DNA of 63,722 nucleotides, the filler included, from Reticulomyxa filosa (Eukaryota; Protista; Foraminifera): assembly GCA_000512085.1 (NCBI GenBank). It is 19 parts of 19 records of this genome, joined end to end, with 100 filler letters (N's around TTAATTAATTAA, not from the genome) between each part and the next. Parts side by side here need not be neighbours in the genome. Positions count along the whole stretch, not along the records: positions 1 to 11,032 come from ASPP01005468.1; 18 more parts are not named here. One strand, written 5' to 3'. The notes below the pieces were generated by a model that was given only the letters and a program-made list of their open reading frames with translations, ran no database searches and had not been told where the DNA came from. Positions 1-14,934 of this stretch are shown piece after piece. Each line of letters opens with the position of its first letter. The first letter of the stretch is position 1. Made by a program: the position numbers and the translations under genes.

Positions 1-123
1 AAAAAATAAAAAAAAAAAAAAAAAAAAAAATTTTTTTTTTTTTTGGATTAGTCTCTTGTATGCTTACAAGAAGCATACAAGAGTCTGTAACACGTATACA
101 AAAACAACAACACAAAATAATAG

Positions 124-1395
124 ACAAAAAGTCGAATTGGTGAGAAAGCAAGTCAAATTTGTGAGAGAGCATGGGTAGATTTATTAAAAATAGCGGACAA
201 TGATGAATCGGCATTGGAAATATTAGCAAACCTTTTGGAAAATCCTCAATGCGAACATTTTAATTTTGTGAGTAATCTCAACAAGCACAATTGGGAGGGT
301 TGTCTGTACTGCTTTTGCAAGCAATGGAGAAAAGCCAACAAACTTTTGATTAAATTGGCAATGCGCACATTTCCTTACATTTGGAAGTATTTTTTGTTGA
401 AAAAAGAGATCAATATAGGAGAACAAATTTCAAAATTAGAATTGGATTGCACGTGGATGGAGTTGAATGAAGTGGGGCTCATTTCCGTTTGTGCAAATAA
501 GATCAAGTTTGACGTCCCTATATTGCTGTTGTTGAGTCTAGTGCACGAACAGCATGACAATTGTCTACTCATACGACATCTCCCAGCCATTTGGCAATTC
601 ATGAAAGACCCCTCCCCACAGAATATGGAGAAAATGGTGATCTCACTAACAGTGTTACGTGTTAGTGCATATGAGAAGGAGGAGGAGGAGGAGGGAACGT
701 CGCAAAGCTATAACGAAGTGTTCAACGTATGTAACATCCCAGAAAACAGCAAAGACCTTTTAGAGTTACAGGTGATGCCAAAGGAGCTGGAGATTACTCA
801 CCGACATGCAAAGTTTGATACAGAAAAGTCCAGGTTGAAAGGTGAAGATCCGATGTGTTTCACGTTCACTGACGACAATCCAAGTTTCGATGGATTGATT
901 CGTTTGTCCGGAAAGTGGGAGGGACGAGATGTCGCCGTGTGGACCTTTTTGGAAATTAAAAGTATCAATTGGTGTAACATTGTAACTCGTGCCACTGACT
1001 ATGTGAATACAATTGAAGACTTGCAAGCGTTTGGAAAAGACGAGCCATTTGGATCCGACTGGCACGTACCTAACAAAGATTTTGATTTTTCCGATCAAAA
1101 ACAGCAAACTGCTGAAAGTCAAGGGTACAGATTGATGAAAACGAAATCTACACTTGATGGACGGAAAGTATTTCTTGCTGTTCCATTCAGTAGCAAAGCC
1201 AAATCTTCCAAAATCTACTTGTCAAAAGGATTCATTGATGGAGGCTTAAAGAAGTTTATTCAAGTCATACTCTGTGGAATGACAAACTGTAAAATTTCAG
1301 AGCGAGTGAAACAAAATAATCGCCAAATGCATGCACTTTTTGAGTCCAAACATTGTATTTGGTTTTATAACACAAAACCAAGGGGTTTTTTCTGA
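124..1395 (+). CDS. 3' terminal exon of an unknown protein (about 420 aa)
   Basis: The 214..1395 frame is open back to a TAG at 121-123 that follows an A-rich, intron-like tract (probable acceptor): TKSRIGEKASQICERAWVDLLKIADNDESALEILAN... No family recognised. Confidence 0.7.
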   Translation, partial: TKSRIGEKASQICERAWVDLLKIADNDESALEILANLLENPQCEHFNFVSNLNKHNWEGCLYCFCKQWRKANKLLIKLAMRTFPYIWKYFLLKKEINIGEQISKLELDCTWMELNEVGLISVCANKIKFDVPILLLLSLVHEQHDNCLLIRHLPAIWQFMKDPSPQNMEKMVISLTVLRVSAYEKEEEEEGTSQSYNEVFNVCNIPENSKDLLELQVMPKELEITHRHAKFDTEKSRLKGEDPMCFTFTDDNPSFDGLIRLSGKWEGRDVAVWTFLEIKSINWCNIVTRATDYVNTIEDLQAFGKDEPFGSDWHVPNKDFDFSDQKQQTAESQGYRLMKTKSTLDGRKVFLAVPFSSKAKSSKIYLSKGFIDGGLKKFIQVILCGMTNCKISERVKQNNRQMHALFESKHCIWFYNTKPRGFF

Positions 1396-1839
1396 CATTA
1401 CTCTCTCTTTTAAGGCAAAAAAAATAAGCGTATTGGTCTTAATATTTAAAAAAAAAAAACAACTTATATCTATCACATAAACTATCAACTCAATAAACTT
1501 AGAGCCACCTTATATCTTTGAAACTCTACTTAAAAATTCGAAAAAAAATGTACAGTACCAAATTTGATAATATTATAATGTTGACTTAAGTTGAATTGGA
1601 AAAAAAAACATAAATAAAGGCGTATGGACAAACGGAAAGCATCAAAACGTATACAATGTAAGGTCCGAGGAGTCAGCTATCGAGCGATAAAGGAATTTTT
1701 TGAAGTGATTAGTTTAGAAATAATTAATGGATTGTTTTCTTCATTTGTATCTCTTATTTATTATTATTTGAGTGTAGAAAATTCAACGAAGCTGTTCCAA
1801 ACAGCAAAAAGCTTTTTTTTTTGGTTGTATATTCGTATT

Positions 1840-3114
1840 TGGTCTTGTTCCTTTATCAACAAGAATTCAGCAATTGCATCACTTAAAGGTTAGTGTACCA
1901 AATAAGCTATCTTAATCTGTTGTGACTGTCCAGTCCACGATACCTTTTAGGTTTTGGTGGATGTATCGTTAACACTGAATTACAACAGCATTTTTTACAA
2001 AATATAAAATAATTTAATATCTCTTCAATTAGTAAATATCTTCTACTTGAAATTATTGACGACAAAACTCGTAAAGTTCGTCAAAGTGTAGAGAGGAGTG
2101 GGAAGTAATGTTCATTAGCTAAAAAAAAATAAAATAGGTACTTGTTTTGTGCTTTCTTCATCAGAGCCAATTAAACTTCGGTTGAATTTTTACCATGAAA
2201 GCTTAGATGAATGTGATGACAAGCCATATCACAAATTGCAGAGACTATGAATCCTAGAAGATATTAGAAAAGGGGTTGGCATTCTGGTAAAAGATCAATT
2301 GTATCGATTACCACAACAATAATTTTTTCGCTTTGAGCTTGTATTATGGCCTGAAAAGTTGTCATGTGTGATCAATTGAATGAATCGAAAAAATTAGCGT
2401 ACTTTCTGATGTGCTTGTACAATTATTGCAAGAATTAATTGAAAAAGCTTTAGCATGGCGTGCGAAGCAAAAATATATTACAAGTCAGTTCATGAATGCT
2501 GTATCAGCCAAATACACAAGCTCATTCTTCCGAATTGAAGACTTACAGTTTCCATTTGGAAGAAAAAGAGTAATTGAAACAAATATGCTCCATTTTGTGG
2601 CCATTGTATCAAGCGCAAAACAATGGAACTACGAACAAGATCCAAAATTTTTGAAAAAAGCATTAATTTTCAAATCAATGTACTAGGACAAATGTTAGTG
2701 CATGCCAAATTCAAAGAAATAAATGAATCAATTGATTGTTATAAAGCTAATTATTATTTGAACCATAAAGGCTTAGACAGTTTAATGCTAGAAGTGCAAG
2801 CTCAAATATAACGCTATATTTTTGCAATGAAAAAAATATCATGTGCTATTTGGAGTCAGTTATTAGTCCGTGCATGAGCTGTCGATTGTGTTCAGAGTTC
2901 AGAGCTATTGGAAATACGTAGAAACTTACTTGTTATCCATGAATAGAAAAATATATTTGCGGCAGAGCTAGAAACACATGGCAGGACCAATTTGAGTACT
3001 ATTGTTGATCGACCTGATCTGCGTAAAGATTGGTTAAACAAGTGCAAAGAAATTAAAGCTATAATTCACAATAGTATACAAAAATTGAAAATCGAAGCAA
3101 AAAAAACAAAATAA
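1840..3114 (+). pseudogene. Degraded coding sequence, possibly dynamin/Mx-like middle plus GED region
   Basis: Protein-like segments in shifting frames with stops: GLVPLSTRIQQLHHLKV, EDIRKGVGILVKDQLYRLPQQ*FF, LMLEVQAQI*RYIFAMKK, AAELETHGRTNLSTIVDRPDLRKDWLNKCKEIKAIIHNSIQKL. The last resembles the helical pattern of a dynamin GED. The family call is weak. Confidence 0.3.
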
Positions 3115-3823
3115 ATATTTCCTTTGATGTTTCGAAATAGCATAAATTATTTGCATTTAAAATTATTCAATGAAAAGAATTACATAATGGACATACTTCA
3201 ATGGAAAATGATTATTTTTGTGTATTAGTTTGATGCTATTATTAATGTCACCTATATGGCAAAGAGTTTTTATTAATTTTGTTCGTAATAAAAGAGATTA
3301 CAATGTAATTGACTGGTTTTTTCATTCAACTATGTACATTTTTTTCATTAACCAATAAAGAATACCATAGAAAAAAAGGTACATTAATTCTGTATCAAGT
3401 TTATTGACTAGTTTTTGGAAAAGAAGAAGTAGTTTGTATTTTATTTAAGACGTGAATAATAAGTATACCTTCACTTTTATCTTTCCACAAAAACAAAAAA
3501 AGACATTAATCCAAAGTTCAAATTCGTGTTTCGTTTTTCAAAAGGCTATTCACGCTTTTTATTTTTTCAAGGAAAGTTAAAACTACTCAACACTAATAGC
3601 ATGGATAATCAAATACAACACAAAAATATCGCAAAAGACAAATTAAACAAAGCCGACATAAAATTACTTCAATTTCCATTCAAAATTTAATGAAAAGCAA
3701 CAAAAACAGCAATGAAAGCATTTCGTTATCTTTTAATAAAAATGCTAAACATTAATGATAAAACAAACAAAAAAATATCAAATCGCTTCACACACAACAA
3801 CGCTATGCATCCAAATTTAAAAC

Positions 3824-3931
3824 AAAAGCAAAGGAAGGAAAAAGCGAAAAAAAAAAGGATTAAATCAGGCGGCGCCTTCAGGCGCCGCCCGAACTAACCC
3901 TTTCTTTTTGCTTTTGTCTTCCTTTGCTTTT
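3824..3931. repeat. Long imperfect palindrome/hairpin with GC-rich apex
   Basis: GGCGGCGCC(3868-76)-TTCA-GGCGCCGCC(3881-89) is a perfect 9-bp stem. Outer AAAAGCAAAGGAAG(3824-37)/CTTCCTTTGCTTTT(3918-31) is a perfect 14 bp. The arms between are largely complementary. Confidence 0.9.
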
Positions 3932-4254
3932 TTTTATTTTTTCTATTACGGTGCGTTTTTGTTGACCAGACAGTAACAATACTTTTTAGCAGCATACTCA
4001 AATATGACAGCATCTAATGAAAAACTAATGTGATTTAGGGCAAGAGTAAGACTTGGGCTACATGATCATGTGGTCATAAGAATATGTATACATATATGCA
4101 AATATATACGTATTCTTTTTCATCAATCCCCCTACTTATTTCTTGAAAAGAGAAAGTTTTTTTAAATGATTAAATATATATTATTATTATAAATTATTTC
4201 TACCAAGACATAATCATAATAAATATATGCATATATTTGTTAATATTATTATCA

Positions 4255-4500
4255 TTGAAGTTGATCGAATCTTTCACAATGGTACGCACATGCTTGTGCA
4301 ATGAGGTATATTGCGCTTAAAGTGGAGAAATGGAAACTCTTCCACGGAAATGGATCAGCCTTTGGTTGCTGAACAGGTGTATCAAATCAATGTCGACATT
4401 AAAATGATGAACTATATTTTAATTGCAAACACAAAATTCGATTGAGCATTTCTTCCAATAATTGGTCGATGTTTTTTGTGAATTGGAACAATGACAAACT
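4255..4500 (+). pseudogene. CocE/NonD-family (PepX_C-type) hydrolase C-terminal domain fragment
   Basis: KLI/IFHNGTHMLVQ*GILRLKWRNG...PLVAEQVYQINVDIKMMNYI.../HKIRLSISSNNWSMFFVNWNN matches the CocE C-terminal pattern (DGIxRxxxR, PxxxYxxxIDx, HxIRLxISS). One stop and two frameshifts. Confidence 0.6.
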
Positions 4501-4663
4501 GGTTATCGATGGAAGCTATGCTTTAAAAAACATTGAACGAAGCTTTAAAAATTTTTTAAACAGCAAGTAAAAAAAAATAAATTAAAGTTTGCATTCAATA
4601 TATACTTTAATTACATTTTTCAAACAAAAACACTTTTCATTTATTATTTGATAAGAAAGTAAA

Positions 4664-5110
4664 TTATCCCCAAATACGAATGTGACCATTTGAACAATAA
4701 CATAAATTAATTACATACTTATCATTTTTTTTTCTTTTTTAGCTTAATGAATTTAAGACAGGATATTTTGTATCCTTTATCATTTCCTTTGATTGCATAT
4801 AATTCTTTCTTAATAAATCAGATATCCCAAAAACAAATTTCATTATCAAACGAAAGCGAAGATATAACATTTGAATTACCAATAAAATCCTTTATTACAA
4901 ATGGTGAATATTCAACACATAATATTCGCTCTTTATGTTTATATGATATAACAGCTCCAGTTTGTTCTGACTTATCTGTATATTGTGATTGTAGTATATT
5001 TGTAGATATTAGATCTACTATATTTACTTGAGATATAAATGTTTATTATTGAATTCAACTAATATCAAATTGGTCCAACATATCCATATGAATAACGTAT
5101 TTATCAATCA
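4664..5110 (-). pseudogene. WD40-repeat family pseudogene, 3' part
   Basis: The reverse strand reads ...CVEYSPFVIKDFIGNSNVISSLSFDNEICFWDI*...NDKYVINLCYCSNGHIRIWG*, homologous to the C-termini of the WD40 genes at 48364-49700 and 54151-54834. Stops and frameshifts are present. Confidence 0.85.
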
Positions 5111-7466
5111 TCAGAATCATCTGAACTTAGTGTAAAATATAGTAATTTTTCTTTTTGCTGTTCTGATGGTAATGCTGATGATAGTAATGATAATAATGAT
5201 AATCTTGACTAGAATAGTGACGATGTCTGTTGTGATGTAGTTGTTGTGATAATTGATATTGTTGTAAAGATAATGGTTTCAAATCAATATTTTGTTTATC
5301 AATGATTTCATCATCTAACTATAAGGGTGAATACCTTAAGTTGGACTTCTTCAGATGCTGATAAAGATAATTGAGAATATTTTATAGAATCATCATTATC
5401 ATTTTTATCATCATTATCATCTTTTCCATAATCACTATCTTTGTCATTTTCTTTTTTGTATCATTTTCTTGTTTTTCGTCTTTATTGATAAATTAGGACG
5501 TCAAACATCTGAAGAAAATACTTTTTTGTAATACTCACAAACAAGAAAATAAAATAAATATATTTATATTATAATAAATATATATTACGTACAATATACA
5601 AATCTTTATAATCACTGGAAACATTCATCTTGAAGTCCTAATAAAGAAATTGCTTTTTACAATGTAATAAAACAGCAATAAGATATAACACTTGAATATG
5701 TATTATACAAAATTTCAAACATGTAAAATATTATTATAAACTATACTTGATTTTTTCTTTTTTTAATATCAATAAATTAAAATTATAACTTGTAATCACA
5801 ACAATTTATATATAATAGCATTGTGAAAAAATAAAATTCAGGATCCAGTTATTCTATTATTTGCCGAATCCTTAAAATCAATTTTCTCTTTAATTAGATT
5901 TTTTCTTCATTATTTGCAGAAAACCAAATTTGAACGTTTAAAAATATATGATTTTTTAATTATTTAAAATCTAATTATCATGATATAGAAAAGTGAAATT
6001 TAGCACAAATAACATTTAAATAGAAATGTTGTGATCATTTGCAAATTGTTAAATTTGTTGTATTGAATATGTAGTAGTATCAAGATTAAAAATATTTATC
6101 ACAGTTAATGCACTTTTAGTTTTATTTGATCTTTTCATTGATTGTTTTATATTAAGTTCTTTTTTTCATAAGCTTTATGAATCCTTGATTTCACTTTTAT
6201 ATAATTATGCAAATTAATAGAAAAATGATTTAAAGTATTCCACAAATTATACAATATCAATATAAATATTTTTCTAAATATCACTAAAAGAAAAAAACTA
6301 TATGTATACATTATCTAAATCCTGAGTTTTTATATATAGTAAAATTTATAACGAAAAGTTTTTTAAGGATTTGTACAACTTGTTATAATGACTTATGCTT
6401 TTGATAATTAAAAATGTCAAATTATTTATTCAACAAATACTAGCGTGAAATACAATCAAATAATATGGATTCTAACATAGCAAGACTAATATTGCGCATT
6501 AGATCAAGTTGATATTTATAATAACAGTAATTTTAAAAAATTATTCGAAAAATTACATTAAGTTGAAAAGAAAATTGAACGAATAAAACATATCTTATGA
6601 TGATAATTGGTTTTATCAATGAAAAATCAATTATAATCATAAGATATGTTTTAGGCGTTCAGTTTTCTTTGCAACCTACTGTACTTATGTTGCAATATAC
6701 AAAAAATTTTTTTAGGTTAAAAAATAGTGATAAAAAATTTGGACGTTCTGATAGTGATAAAAGTGTGATATCAATTAGCCAACGTTTTTTAGATTAAAGA
6801 GCAATGTATGCTATCAAGCAATTTAAAAAAGAATCACACATCATTCGACTCGACTGGTTCTTTATCTCAATTGTGATGAGACATCTGTACCTTTACTTTT
6901 TATTATTTCGTTTTTTTTTATTTTTGGCTATGTTTTTTAAATGAAAAATGACAGAAAGTAAAACACAAAAAAAATTGGAAAAAAGTTATTTAACACATTG
7001 GGAGGTTAGCCAACTATGATAGTGATATAATTTTACTTTAGTCATATTTAAAATTTTCACCAAGGATATTCTTTGCGATTTTACACCATCTCCGACCATT
7101 TTTGAGGCTTAGTATTTTCATTTCAACATACAATAATTCCATTTTACTTTGTTTTTTTATTGAAAATAAGCATATTAATTTGTTAATATCAATATGCAAA
7201 ATACTATATACAAAACTATCAATTTGTTTTAACAAAGTTTTCAATGATATTTACAATGTGTCAAATTAGTACAGATTCGCATTACAATTGTCACTATCTT
7301 ATTAGTTCAATCTTGTTCTATTTACTTATTACAAAAAAATTTAGTTTTTTATCATCCAATAAAATATATAATTCAATATCATTTATACATCATCATTATC
7401 ATGTATGTATTTGTATAATAAAAAATAAATATTTTTTTTACTTTTTTTGTAATTTGCTAAATCTTA

Positions 7467-8298
7467 GTGATACTTTTGGAAATTGAAGAAAATGATTTTA
7501 AACAAAGTGAAGTGCAAAGTATCGTACAAAGTGATTTACAAAGCGACAAACAAGATGATGTACTAAGTACATACAAAGTGACGGATAAAATGATAAACAA
7601 ATTGATTATCAACAAAATAAAAATAAAAAATTTGACAATGAATATATTGACAATGATGAAAGTATTAATGAATAAATTGACGAACAAAGTAAAAAAAAGT
7701 CAAAAAATAAAATTTTCGACTGCAAGCAAAACTTTATTTTTAACATATCTATAATGTACGTTACAACTGAAGTGCTTGAAACATTGGAAAACAAACTTAC
7801 AATCAATAAATATTTGATCGCTATGGAAACTCATATACAAAAAGGACGACACCTGCATTACTATATTAATTGTAAAAATAAAGTGGATATAAGTCTATTA
7901 CATAGATTAGCCTTGAATATACTTAAGAGATAGTTTACGTATATCAAAGTATAAAAAGACTGTCAAAAAGTAATACTGAAATAACTAGAAATTATAAATT
8001 CAAAACTGTAAATGGAATATCAAATTGGAACAGATCAAAACATGTGTTATGGTTACATGGAAAAACTAACACTAGACGAGACTACAGCAATTAACGTAAA
8101 ACATGGACACGTTGAAATAAAAAAGGACTTCCAAGAGTATTTACAAGCAATAATACTATTTTCAAAAATGACGCATCAATAAAAAGAAGAATACTGTACA
8201 TTAAAATAGATGAATGTATAAGAGATATTAGTGGAAAAGAATCAGAAAATAGCAACAATTGTGAAGTTACCGATTCAGTTTTTGAAAATGAAGACTAA
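7467..8298 (+). mobile_element. rep: Decayed CRESS-DNA (geminivirus/plasmid-like) Rep: HUH endonuclease plus SF3 helicase; endogenous viral or plasmid element
   Basis: Motifs occur in the correct order across frameshifts: motif I KTLFLTYL*C (FLTY 7737-48); motif II YLIAMETHIQKGRHLHYYI (HLH 7850-58); start of Walker A WNRSKHVLWLHGKTNT (8026-8073); LDETTAINVKHGHVEIKK/GLPRVFTSN (motif C, 8072-8151); Arg-finger-like ASIKRR; stop at 8296-98. Motif III, the GKT of Walker A and Walker B appear deleted. Confidence 0.88.
7503..7612 (+). repeat. Degenerate 12-bp tandem repeat (CAAAGTGANNNN) encoding Q-S-D-x tetrads at the Rep N-terminus
   Basis: caaagtgaagtg caaagtatcgta caaagtgattta caaagcgacaaa caagatgatgta ... 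caaagtgacgga taaaatgataaa caaattgattat. Confidence 0.75.
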
Positions 8299-8304
8299 AT
8301 TTAA

Positions 8305-8720
8305 TGGAATAAAAGAAAAAATACAAATAACTTTGAGCTAATAACTATTTTTTTCTTAAGTTTTGCATTAAGAGAATGTGAATATGTCTGACTACTCATT
8401 GCTTTGTCATTTACTGACAATGGCAAAAATAGGCTATTGCTTTTCAACAACTTCAAATTTAGAAATTTGTCCAACAGTAACATCCAAATTTTATTCGATC
8501 ATATAAATCACAATCGTAGCTTTATTCATAAAATTAAAGAAATTAATTGGGCTTACACATTAAGTGTTGACTAATCAAGGATAAAAGCAACTTCAAAATA
8601 CTGAATGCAAAGTCCATCCTAATGTTGGAAGACGACAATTATTTACAAAATAATCTTTTTAAGCCCAATCGTGGTTTACAAAGACCACATAATTTATTGG
8701 CACAATTAGAAATGTCATAG
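8305..8720 (+). pseudogene. Second decayed ORF directly downstream of Rep, function unknown
   Basis: Frame 1 reads WNKRKNTNNFELITIFFLSFALRECEYV*LLIALSFTDNGKNRLLLFNNFKFRNLSNSNIQILFDHINHNRSFIHKIKEINWAYTLSV. It continues in frame 3 from 8571 as LIKDKSNFKILNAKSILMLEDDNYLQNNLFKPNRGLQRPHNLLAQLEMS*. This is unusually open for such AT-rich DNA. Confidence 0.4.
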
Positions 8721-8745
8721 TATTAATATTTTTTTTTCACTTAAG

Positions 8746-8886
8746 TTAATTAAAATTTTTTTAAAAAAATCTACGAATCAAATGAAAGATTAAAATTTTT
8801 GAAAAATTGTAAAAACTTAATAAAAAACCAAAATGATATTTAAAAACTACGCGATTCGTAGATATTTTTTTTTTAATTTTGATTAA
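8746..8886. repeat. Inverted repeat downstream of the Rep cassette
   Basis: ATCTACGAATC(8769-79)/GATTCGTAGAT(8853-63) is a perfect 11 bp, extended by A/T tracts and TTAATTAAAATT/AATTTTGATTAA. A nested mini-hairpin CTACG-CGATT-CGTAG lies at 8847-8861. Confidence 0.7.
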
Positions 8887-10944
8887 ATGTTGTTTTTTCA
8901 TGGAGAAACAAAATCATCTCTATAATGTGGCAACTTTCTTTTTTATCATACTGTATTTCAATTATTTTTTTCATTATTCATAACAGTGTTTAAAAAAGGA
9001 AAAAGGCAAATATCATAATTTAAAACAAGTTTGATCAAACCTGATCATAAAAGAGCGACAGACTTTGAGACTTTGGCTTCTTTGTCAACAATACGAAATT
9101 GCCGTTTGTGGAAATATACAATGCTTATTTCGACTTGATAATAATCTACAATCAACATACATATTTAATTAGATATCTATATTGCCTTCCAGTAAAATCA
9201 CATCATTTAAACTTGCCCACAAAATGAGAAACAGTAATTGTTTTAAAAAATATGTAAAAATATGTTACAAAATCCGAAATTAAGTTTTTTCAGTAAGAAA
9301 CTGAAAGAAGGCAAGAACGATTTCCTTTGAACTGAACTTCCCAAAAACTCATTAATTGTGACTAGTGTTTGAAAAATATTGAACATTTTTTTAATTGATA
9401 CGAATTTCTTACTTCTCAAAAGTATCAATAACAAACTTCAGTTTTATGGCAAATTATTTCTCACATATCTTAAATGATAAAATTCCAAAAAATAAATTAA
9501 ACAACAATCCAAATTATAAATTGAATAAATTCAAAAATGAAAATTAAAACAAAATTTTATTCACACATATTCAATCAAAAAGTTTAAATATTTTCATGCT
9601 TAAAAAAAAATTTTGAATAAGTATTAGTTTTCCACGAATAAACACAAGAATGTTCAATACCTCCAAACTTTGTCACAATTCTCTTTTATCGCCATACTAT
9701 AATGAAAATAAGTATCATTTCCATTTTTTTGATACAAACGTTTCGTCAAGCTGCAAAAGGAAAGTTTCTCAAAGCTGGCAAAAAATATTGTTTTGGATAA
9801 TTCTGGGAATAAGTATATATAATCGTAAAACAATACATCTCAAGTGCATCACATAGCAAGTTAAATAAATCATATTCACAAATTTTTTAATTTAGGTTAT
9901 TCATTGTTCTTTATTTTTTTTAATCATATGGTGAACATTCACAAACGAACACTGTATCATTGGTCCAAAAATATGTATTGTTTCATGTGATAATACATCT
10001 GTCTTTATGTTTGATCAATTACAATTATGATGATTTTAGATAAAATAGATTGTATTATCTTATCAAAAGTATTTATTCCCTTTTATAAAAAACCAAATAT
10101 CATTAAAACAACATTCCACATTTTAACACAATTAAATTGAAAAATAGAACCAAACACGGTTAAATACTAACACAAATTAACCAATGAAATAATTTGATTA
10201 ATTAACATGAATTGTTTTATAATTGCATTAGTCTTTTGAATTCTAGTTTGATTGATTTTTGTGTCCTTGCTAAATTAGATTTCAACCACACATAGATTCA
10301 ACTCTTTCCAATTATTTGGAAAATTTTAATAATAGAATACACAAAAGAATCATTGAATCCATATTTAATGGCTTTGGGTCAAGGAATACAATATGCAAAA
10401 GAGTGATGAATATATCAAAAATATTAAAAATGAATGGTAAAGATGTATTATTACATAATATTTACAAAAGATAGAAAGAGGCAATTCATTTGTGAATACT
10501 ATTTTATAAAGTAATAGAGAATAGTTATTTGATTGGTTTAAATCAACAAATTTATTTTAATGAAAAGAAAAATATAGATGAATTAATATTAAATGATAAA
10601 AATTTAACAATATTTATAAACATATGGTGATACTTTTCTTACTAGCTTCTTCAATTCTTCTTTCTTCCAATTCAACTATTTCCATTTAATTCTTTTTTAT
10701 TTTTCGTATATTTCTGATTCCTTTTATTTTTATTCAAATTTGTGTTTTGTTCAACTCTTGTTGCTTAAATAAATTAATTCGTTTTTCCACTTAAGTTGCA
10801 ATAAATTTGAATTATTTCAAATTTAAAAATAAGTAAAATCAAAAATTCATAAGATTACAAATTTATAATGAAATTCATTTAATAATTTTAAATCGAGTTT
10901 CTGAAGCTTCAAAAGTAAAAAAAAAAGGTTACTTCATCATTATC

Positions 10945-11032
10945 ATGCTTCAACAAACGTTCCCTAAGATAGATGAAGAGATCATTTCAGAGGCATTGAA
11001 ATGGCTTAATCAAGATGTTGAAAAGACAAAAA
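10945..11032 (+). CDS. CUE-like domain, 5' fragment cut by contig end
   Basis: MLQQTFPKIDEEIISEALKWLNQDVEKTK fits the CUE pattern LxxxFPxxDxxxIxxxLxxxxxxVE. Confidence 0.5.
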
Positions 11033-14059: not shown

Positions 14060-14934
14060 ACCTCCACCCAATGAAGTTGTATAATATTTCCAACTTTAAA
14101 TTAATAGATAGCCCCTTCTAAGTCGTGAACAAAAATAATTTTCTATTATCCACACGCTCCGTGCATCGATAAAAGCATCTTCCATTGCTTTCAACCAATA
14201 CTTGCATAAAATAAATATAATTTTACATTCATGTAAAACAGTTGGCTAATTTTTTAATATTCATTTTATCATTGGTTCCAAAAAGAAAGTATAGCTTAAT
14301 GCAAATTAACCAGCGTTTTTTGTTTTTAAGATTGTTTATTTATTTCTTTTTTATTTCAATTTTTACTTTATTTAAAAAGATAAGTGAAAAACAAGCTGAT
14401 AAGTATGATATTAGTAATATATTTAATTGTTACTTTTTGTTAAATGTTATTCTTTTTTTTCCTATCAACCAAATCAATGTGAAGATTGGTACTTTGGTAA
14501 AACTTTCAACATAATGAAGTAGACGCTTGACTCTTATATTTTTTTGGATAGAGAAATTGATTAGTTCAAATCCTTCAACTTTTTAAACTGTTCTAAAAAA
14601 GCGGTAATTTAGAAAAAAAGAATACTATTGTACGAGATACAGTATGTTGCAAAGAAAACTGAACGCCTAAAACGATATNNNNNNNNNNNNNNNNNNNNNN
14701 NNNNNNNNNNNNNNNNNNNNNNTTAATTAATTAANNNNNNNNNNNNNNNNNNNNNNNNNNNNNNNNNNNNNNNNNNNNTTTTTATTAATTATTAAAAAAA
14801 GAAAATAAAATAGATCACACATAAATGTATATATATATATATATATATATTTCTATATATTTGTATTGAATACTATGCATATATCACGTCACATATACAT
14901 ATATGTATAAAATGGGTGAATGTGTTGCATGTAG

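Follow-up and report, generated by a model that had tools for sequence, protein, structure and literature searches.

A Decayed Rep Gene of Reticulomyxa filosa with a Likely piggyBac-Type Transposase Remnant as Its Neighbor

The window analyzed in this study is a 63,722-nucleotide stretch of DNA from the foraminiferan Reticulomyxa filosa (assembly GCA_000512085.1), consisting of 19 parts from 19 records joined by filler letters. The locus of interest lies on the first contig of the window (positions 1–11032) and comprises a decayed Rep gene, a second degenerate frame on the same strand (referred to here as ORF2), an inverted repeat, and a short downstream piece that resembles part of a transposase domain (Table 1). 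This contig is considered to be host chromosome because a decayed WD40 piece on its minus strand (4746–4937) resembles, with 57% identity over 68 residues, a host WD40 ORF on another contig of the window. The surroundings of the Rep locus are AT-rich and contain other repeat remnants, and a scan of 6300–9600 against Rfam returned no matches.

Several other features were observed along the contig. A near-perfect foldback of 136 bp (6551–6686; z −12.5) has a 95%-identical piece (14638–14678) at the end of another contig; its outer ends are TA-CAGT-like, and the foldback is presumably a multicopy miniature element of the Tc1/mariner type. Upstream of Rep, two motifs of 9 and 10 bases occur twice each with their order swapped (6750–6783 and 7006–7027), and these are possible iterons or subterminal repeats. 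The second-strongest inverted repeat of the window is a hairpin that is GC-rich, has a loop of 4 bases, and is set in AT-rich DNA (3846–3911). A hairpin with a perfect stem of 16 bp and a loop of 5 bases (50–86) lies just upstream of a 423-codon ORF (124–1392) for which no Pfam family was found. Further downstream, a 66-aa frame on the plus strand (10274–10471) had a weak match to a helix-turn-helix transposase family (PF12759, E = 0.0054) and is possibly another transposon remnant.

Table 1. Features of the Rep locus, with positions counted along the window.
Feature	Position	Strand	Remarks
Decayed Rep gene (HUH endonuclease + SF3 helicase family)	7476..8298 (start approximate)	+	Frameshifted, two large internal deletions; block matches to ETO15557.1 (P0005), Rep profile matches 7668–8256
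Remnant of low-complexity Gln/Ser/Asp-rich N-terminal extension	7476..7700	+	Common to P0005, by block alignment
12-bp-period tandem array	7502–7606	+	Aligns to Gln/Ser/Asp-rich N-terminus of P0005
Rep motif I (FLTY), then in-frame stop	7737..7748	+	P0005 block 202–219
Rep motif II (HLH)	7850..7858	+	P0005 block 222–271
Deletion junction	7918..7920	+	~62 P0005 residues (272–333) gone, catalytic Tyr motif III included; block alignment
Deletion junction	8072..8074	+	~52 P0005 residues (390–441) gone: end of Walker A, all of Walker B; block alignment
Rep stop codon	8296–8298	+	Otherwise intact
ORF2, likely decayed core of piggyBac-type DDE transposase, over three frames	8304..8720	+	Motifs LSVD*S (8560), DNY (8634), GTIR (8699)
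Imperfect inverted repeat with TTAA at each outer end; arms of 34 bp around a spacer of 73 bp	8746..8886		Likely part of insertion inside transposase remnant
Likely C-terminal piece of piggyBac-type transposase domain	9674..9823	+	Pfam PF13843 DDE_Tnp_1_7, E = 0.03, 14.1 bits (cut-off 22.4), profile 297–347

A Rep gene extended by repeats had been proposed at this position from the sequence alone, and comparison with an intact paralogue bore out both parts of that description. A search with one window frame read through its stops gave one protein among 621 candidates, ETO15557.1 (P0005), which is annotated as “rep [Reticulomyxa filosa]” and is an intact protein of 516 aa encoded on a 2,232-bp contig. 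The window copy is 70.6% identical to this protein over 201 aligned residues, with individual blocks at 61–83%, against 38–52% identity to the nearest environmental Reps. The N-terminal 200 residues of ETO15557.1 are of low complexity and rich in Gln, Ser, and Asp, and it is with this region that the tandem array of the window copy aligns. HUH motifs I and II, helicase motif C, and the Arg finger are retained in the window copy, the frame changes repeatedly along the gene, and the two deletions are 150–190 bp each. Because the catalytic Tyr, Walker B, and the last part of Walker A are gone and the frame is broken, the window Rep cannot be active; judged from its sequence it is a genuine but dead gene copy. 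The window frames searched on their own against Pfam had no Rep family match, and a Rep profile search of the window gave no match beyond the Rep locus.

ETO15557.1 has all three HUH motifs (FLTY, HLH, and YCTK) with one Tyr, and matches the Pfam family Gemini_AL1 (E = 8e-18). [quoted passage not shown] The combination of HUH motifs I–III with a fused SF3 helicase is that of a CRESS-type Rep. The SF3 helicase also upholds the earlier distinction of this family from Helitrons and from helicase-less HUH transposons. Helitrons have a Y2 Rep fused to an SF1B helicase (PMC10288648), unlike ETO15557.1, which is a Y1 Rep with SF3 motifs. Replitrons, as described by Craig (2023, PMC10288648), are similar in being mobile elements of eukaryotes whose Y1 Rep is related to CRESS Reps and has a long disordered N-terminus; they have no helicase, their motifs are mostly HUQ and GYxxK, and they carry short direct terminal repeats, in contrast to the HLH, YCTK, and full SF3 helicase of ETO15557.1. 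A Replitron reading of the locus based on an apparent GYMEK was rejected, as this motif arises from reading the Walker A region out of frame.

A third copy of the gene (RFI_31564; P0122), one of seven matches among 203 candidates, lies on a 6,928-bp contig, is 57% identical to ETO15557.1, and has decayed separately with different breaks. There are therefore at least three Rep copies in R. filosa, and the sequence is multicopy. No young family is seen, because the copies are diverged (57–71% protein identity) and have copy-specific breaks. The suggestion that the locus represents an undescribed class of element did not survive comparison with the literature: ETO15557.1 is listed in the “P. pulchra-like” Rep cluster beside CRESSV6 (Kazlauskas et al. 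2019, PMC6668415), and both annotated R. filosa Rep copies appear in Lee et al. 2016 (PMC4814812). The accessible text of these sources also places eight Smittium-type accessions in the published set of the family, and describes “P. pulchra-like” Reps as having HUH motifs and an SF3 helicase with an arginine finger and as coming from eukaryote genomes and red algal plasmids (PMC6668415). The member of this cluster is the intact paralogue, whereas the window copy is dead. The window Rep is a fossil of an already catalogued Rep family and is itself ordinary-looking.

Relatives of the Rep numbered 113 proteins at E ≤ 1e-5 among 3355 candidates. In a FastTree analysis of 48 rows, for which 7 of the 19 loci had no usable Rep ORF and P0041–P0118 were left out, two R. 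filosa Reps and seven environmental Reps formed one clade (99 SH-like); the join was weak (19) in a quick tree that held a long-branch row. The low-complexity N-terminal extension is missing from these seven nearest environmental Reps in the alignment. The environmental clade (P0007–P0013, P0130) is unnamed, and its contigs are mostly 1,556–1,669 bp long, with two identical in length. For six of the seven nearest environmental Reps the contig has 579–680 bp outside Rep, compared with 0 of 16 in the clade holding the capsid-bearing circles, this band having been picked after viewing the data (rank test p = 0.021). The contig of ETO15557.1 has 681 bp outside Rep. Based on the contig room outside Rep, the environmental clade is a candidate group of capsid-less circles. 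No relative of ETO15557.1 was found in prokaryote genomes, where a Rep alignment gave Walker-A-level matches only, and a plasmid search returned 11 records with short matches, all below 60% identity and annotated as phytoplasma plasmids.

At the sensitivity of our searches there is no capsid gene near Rep, in keeping with what had been noted from the sequence. Pfam gave no capsid match in six frames of 5500–7470 and 8299–11030, and 11 profiles built from the partner ORFs of relatives had no match outside Rep in 1–11032; heavy decay could mask one. Circular relatives at 36–41% identity bear capsid-like genes, mostly on the opposite strand to Rep and sometimes on the same strand, and 6 of the 9 partner ORFs tested match capsid families at E ≤ 0.1. 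In one of these circular contigs (L080, 721–2666), Rep and a capsid-like gene are co-oriented and accompanied by a third ORF of 114 aa. The tandem layout of the R. filosa locus had been considered an argument against a virus, but, as L080 shows, a same-strand arrangement is compatible with one. None of the capsid-bearing circles fell within the nearest Rep clade (FastTree). A search of 6600–9300 for a nonanucleotide origin gave four one-mismatch nonamers, one of them at 8718, with no stem evident by eye.

ORF2 had been described as a decayed co-oriented ORF ending at 8720, and this proved partly correct. Its ATG lies 5 bp past the Rep stop, an in-frame stop ends at 8720, and by its motifs the region is likely a decayed gene; as an open frame, on the other hand, it has 13 internal stops and does not exceed chance: against 2000 shuffles, p = 0.23 for the longest run free of stops (60 codons) and p = 0.125 for the longest run containing a single stop (89 codons). 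A codon-usage test of ORF2 was without power, as in-frame Rep controls were also near zero. The three motifs of ORF2 (Table 1) are what we take to be the DDE motifs of piggyBac-type transposases (PF13843), in the order of the family. The chain of three occurred in 0 of 20,000 shuffles and in one of 485 window tiles, ORF2 itself, and the single motifs in 11, 405, and 70 of 20,000 shuffles, figures that overstate the significance because the patterns were written and fitted after the sequence had been viewed. What is presumably a fourth piggyBac-type motif is at 9758. From the second Asp motif to GTIR there are 65 nt in ORF2, in agreement with the 21 residues that separate the like positions in a PF13843-matching transposase, the comparison being with one distant sequence from one of 401 genomes. 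There was no direct match between this transposase and ORF2 by tblastn. One ORF2 frame had no relatives among 1.84 billion representative sequences, ORF2 frames and pieces had no relevant match in Pfam, PHROGs, or PDB, and a 60-aa piece in Atlas (recognition 1912) gave only unnamed or unrelated leads.

The sole Pfam match for the piggyBac-type transposase is that to PF13843, which lies ~1 kb past ORF2 and is below the family cut-off. It comes from an ORF at 9617–9853 (plus strand), one of nine window ORFs scanned, and has E = 0.062 when a shorter piece is used. The 145 other window ORFs of at least 85 aa had no transposase match at E ≤ 0.001. From these motifs and matches, ORF2 is very probably a decayed piggyBac-type transposase, and the gene likely extends to ~9820 and is interrupted by the inverted repeat. 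The unexpected feature of the Rep fossil is its neighbor, likely a transposase of the piggyBac type.

The inverted repeat begins 25 bp past 8720, as reported previously, and its arms (8746–8779 and 8853–8886) are 79% complementary. None of 150 local shuffles, and none of 500, matched it, but its fold is no better than shuffles (z −0.30), and it ranks 10th of the 16 window inverted repeats scoring at least 21 bits; no second copy was found within the window. It falls in the stretch that separates the motifs of ORF2 from the PF13843 piece downstream, which is ~800 bp longer than the piggyBac motif layout predicts. Because it would lie inside the likely transposase with this excess DNA, the repeat is likely an insertion and not the element end for which it had been taken. 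Searches for other ends were also carried out. For the best inverted match over long range, 3 of 60 shuffles did as well, and for a candidate left end 72 of 200 did; the only direct match to exceed chance was a simple ATC-type repeat. No pair of TTAA-flanked piggyBac terminal inverted repeats was above chance between 5500–7470 and 9830–11030, and no terminal repeat was found between Rep and ORF2. The hairpin at 6551–6686 was rejected as a left element end, as its second copy is beside host genes on another contig and there is no Rep profile match elsewhere in the window.

We tentatively favor the interpretation that the locus is the fossil of a two-gene mobile element formed of Rep and a piggyBac-type transposase, the two genes being on the same strand with the ORF2 ATG immediately beyond an intact Rep stop. 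In an active element of this kind, Rep would nick an origin and amplify a circular form via rolling-circle replication, and the DDE transposase would excise the element and insert it into chromosomes. As the transposase would handle insertion, the element could spread within the host lineage without a capsid. Once inserted, the window copy would have decayed through deletions, frameshifts, and stops, and the transposase gene likely took up ~800 bp of other DNA, the inverted repeat included. Rep-driven rolling-circle transposition, the mode envisaged in the sequence-only reading, gives way here to integration that is likely DDE-type, since ORF2 is likely a cut-and-paste DDE transposase. Counting against a two-gene element, the 681 bp and 579–680 bp outside Rep on the contigs of ETO15557.1 and six of the seven environmental Reps are too short for a whole transposase, no matching element ends were found, and the large deletions at the locus could have joined separate insertions.

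That possibility of joined insertions is at the center of the main rival explanation, which we consider somewhat less likely: the locus would consist of two unrelated fossils, a Rep endogenised from a plasmid or CRESS-type virus and a piggyBac transposon of separate origin that inserted nearby, with deletions having removed the left end of the latter and juxtaposed the genes. Deletions of 150–190 bp do exist in Rep, the region is AT-rich with other repeat remnants such as the foldback at 6551–6686, no common element ends were found, and a transposase would not fit on the contigs of the nearest environmental Reps. However, this explanation requires a co-oriented insertion and a deletion that stopped a few bases from an otherwise intact Rep stop, in a window where recognizable transposase remnants are uncommon (0 of 145 ORFs).

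It is improbable, in our estimation, that the locus is an integrated small capsid-less Rep circle, plasmid- or satellite-like, of ~1.6 kb, or ~2.2 kb if the long N-terminus is included. The 588 bp past the Rep stop would then be the non-coding part or a small unknown gene, which makes the ORF2 motif chain and the PF13843 match both coincidences. The grouping of R. filosa Reps with seven environmental Reps (99 SH-like) is in favor of such a circle, although the join is weak in the quick tree, as are the 579–680 bp outside Rep (6 of 7 versus 0 of 16, the band chosen after viewing), the 681 bp on the ETO15557.1 contig, and the finding that two separate proteins of one cluster are each on a 1,556-bp contig, the environmental contigs being putative circles. 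Capsid-less relatives have been published, namely red algal plasmids (PMC6668415) and HthCRESSV1 of a marine oomycete (10.64898/2026.04.22.720165). The latter is a two-gene Rep replicon of a protist that lacks a capsid and has integrated copies; compared by description only, it is unlike the R. filosa locus in being mitochondrial and in having a predicted membrane protein as its second gene.

A Rep-mobilised rolling-circle transposon with the inverted repeat as its right end, as first proposed, is very improbable: there are at least three Rep copies, eight Smittium-type accessions in the published family set, and a repeat that exceeds local shuffles, but the copies are 57–71% identical with copy-specific breaks and no young family, and the repeat is ordinary for the genome, single in the window, and likely interrupts the transposase. 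We give equally little credence to an ordinary endogenised CRESS virus with its capsid gene deleted or decayed past recognition, since, despite the capsid-like and sometimes co-oriented genes of circular relatives at 36–41% identity, neither Pfam nor the 11 profiles gave a capsid signal, the nearest clade has no capsid-bearing circle, the environmental Reps in the alignment have no 200-residue low-complexity N-terminus, and the DDE motifs are left unexplained.

The two-gene element that we tentatively favor has partial parallels in known systems. Teratorn is reportedly a fusion of piggyBac and a virus, with a herpesvirus genome. As in Teratorn, a likely piggyBac-type DDE transposase would give integration to a virus-type replicon; unlike in Teratorn, the partner in R. 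filosa is a small rolling-circle Rep, and TTAA-flanked terminal repeats were not found. The geminivirus-like transposon of Tuber melanosporum (Liu et al. 2011, PMC3198968) has Rep, a transposase, and 37-bp TIRs, with 42 Rep genes or remnants. It resembles the R. filosa locus in having an interrupted Rep-like ORF and broken transposase ORFs in a eukaryote genome, and its transposase could also be of the piggyBac type. Its copies are >95% identical and have TIRs, in contrast to the R. filosa copies, which are old and for which no TIRs were found. The accessible text of the “P. pulchra-like” Rep literature (PMC6668415, PMC4814812) has no mention of a transposase partner, and our literature search, with most subscription journals outside its reach, returned no report on a Rep–piggyBac pairing or on this locus.

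More speculatively, R. filosa may have harbored a foraminiferan family of self-amplifying transposons, in which a CRESS-type HUH–SF3 Rep and a piggyBac-type transposase in tandem would have arisen from capsid-less ~1.6-kb Rep circles by transposase capture, coupling rolling-circle copying to cut-and-paste insertion. If the pairing fails in other copies, the locus would be an unremarkable fossil from a Rep family that is already catalogued. If it holds, the locus would add another independent example of a cut-and-paste transposase, here of the piggyBac type, being acquired by a small rolling-circle replicon, and so of a way in which a capsid-less plasmid could become a self-amplifying transposon, in a group of eukaryotes that is poorly sampled. 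The pairing would in addition suggest a type of host for the unnamed environmental Rep clade on ~1.6-kb contigs.
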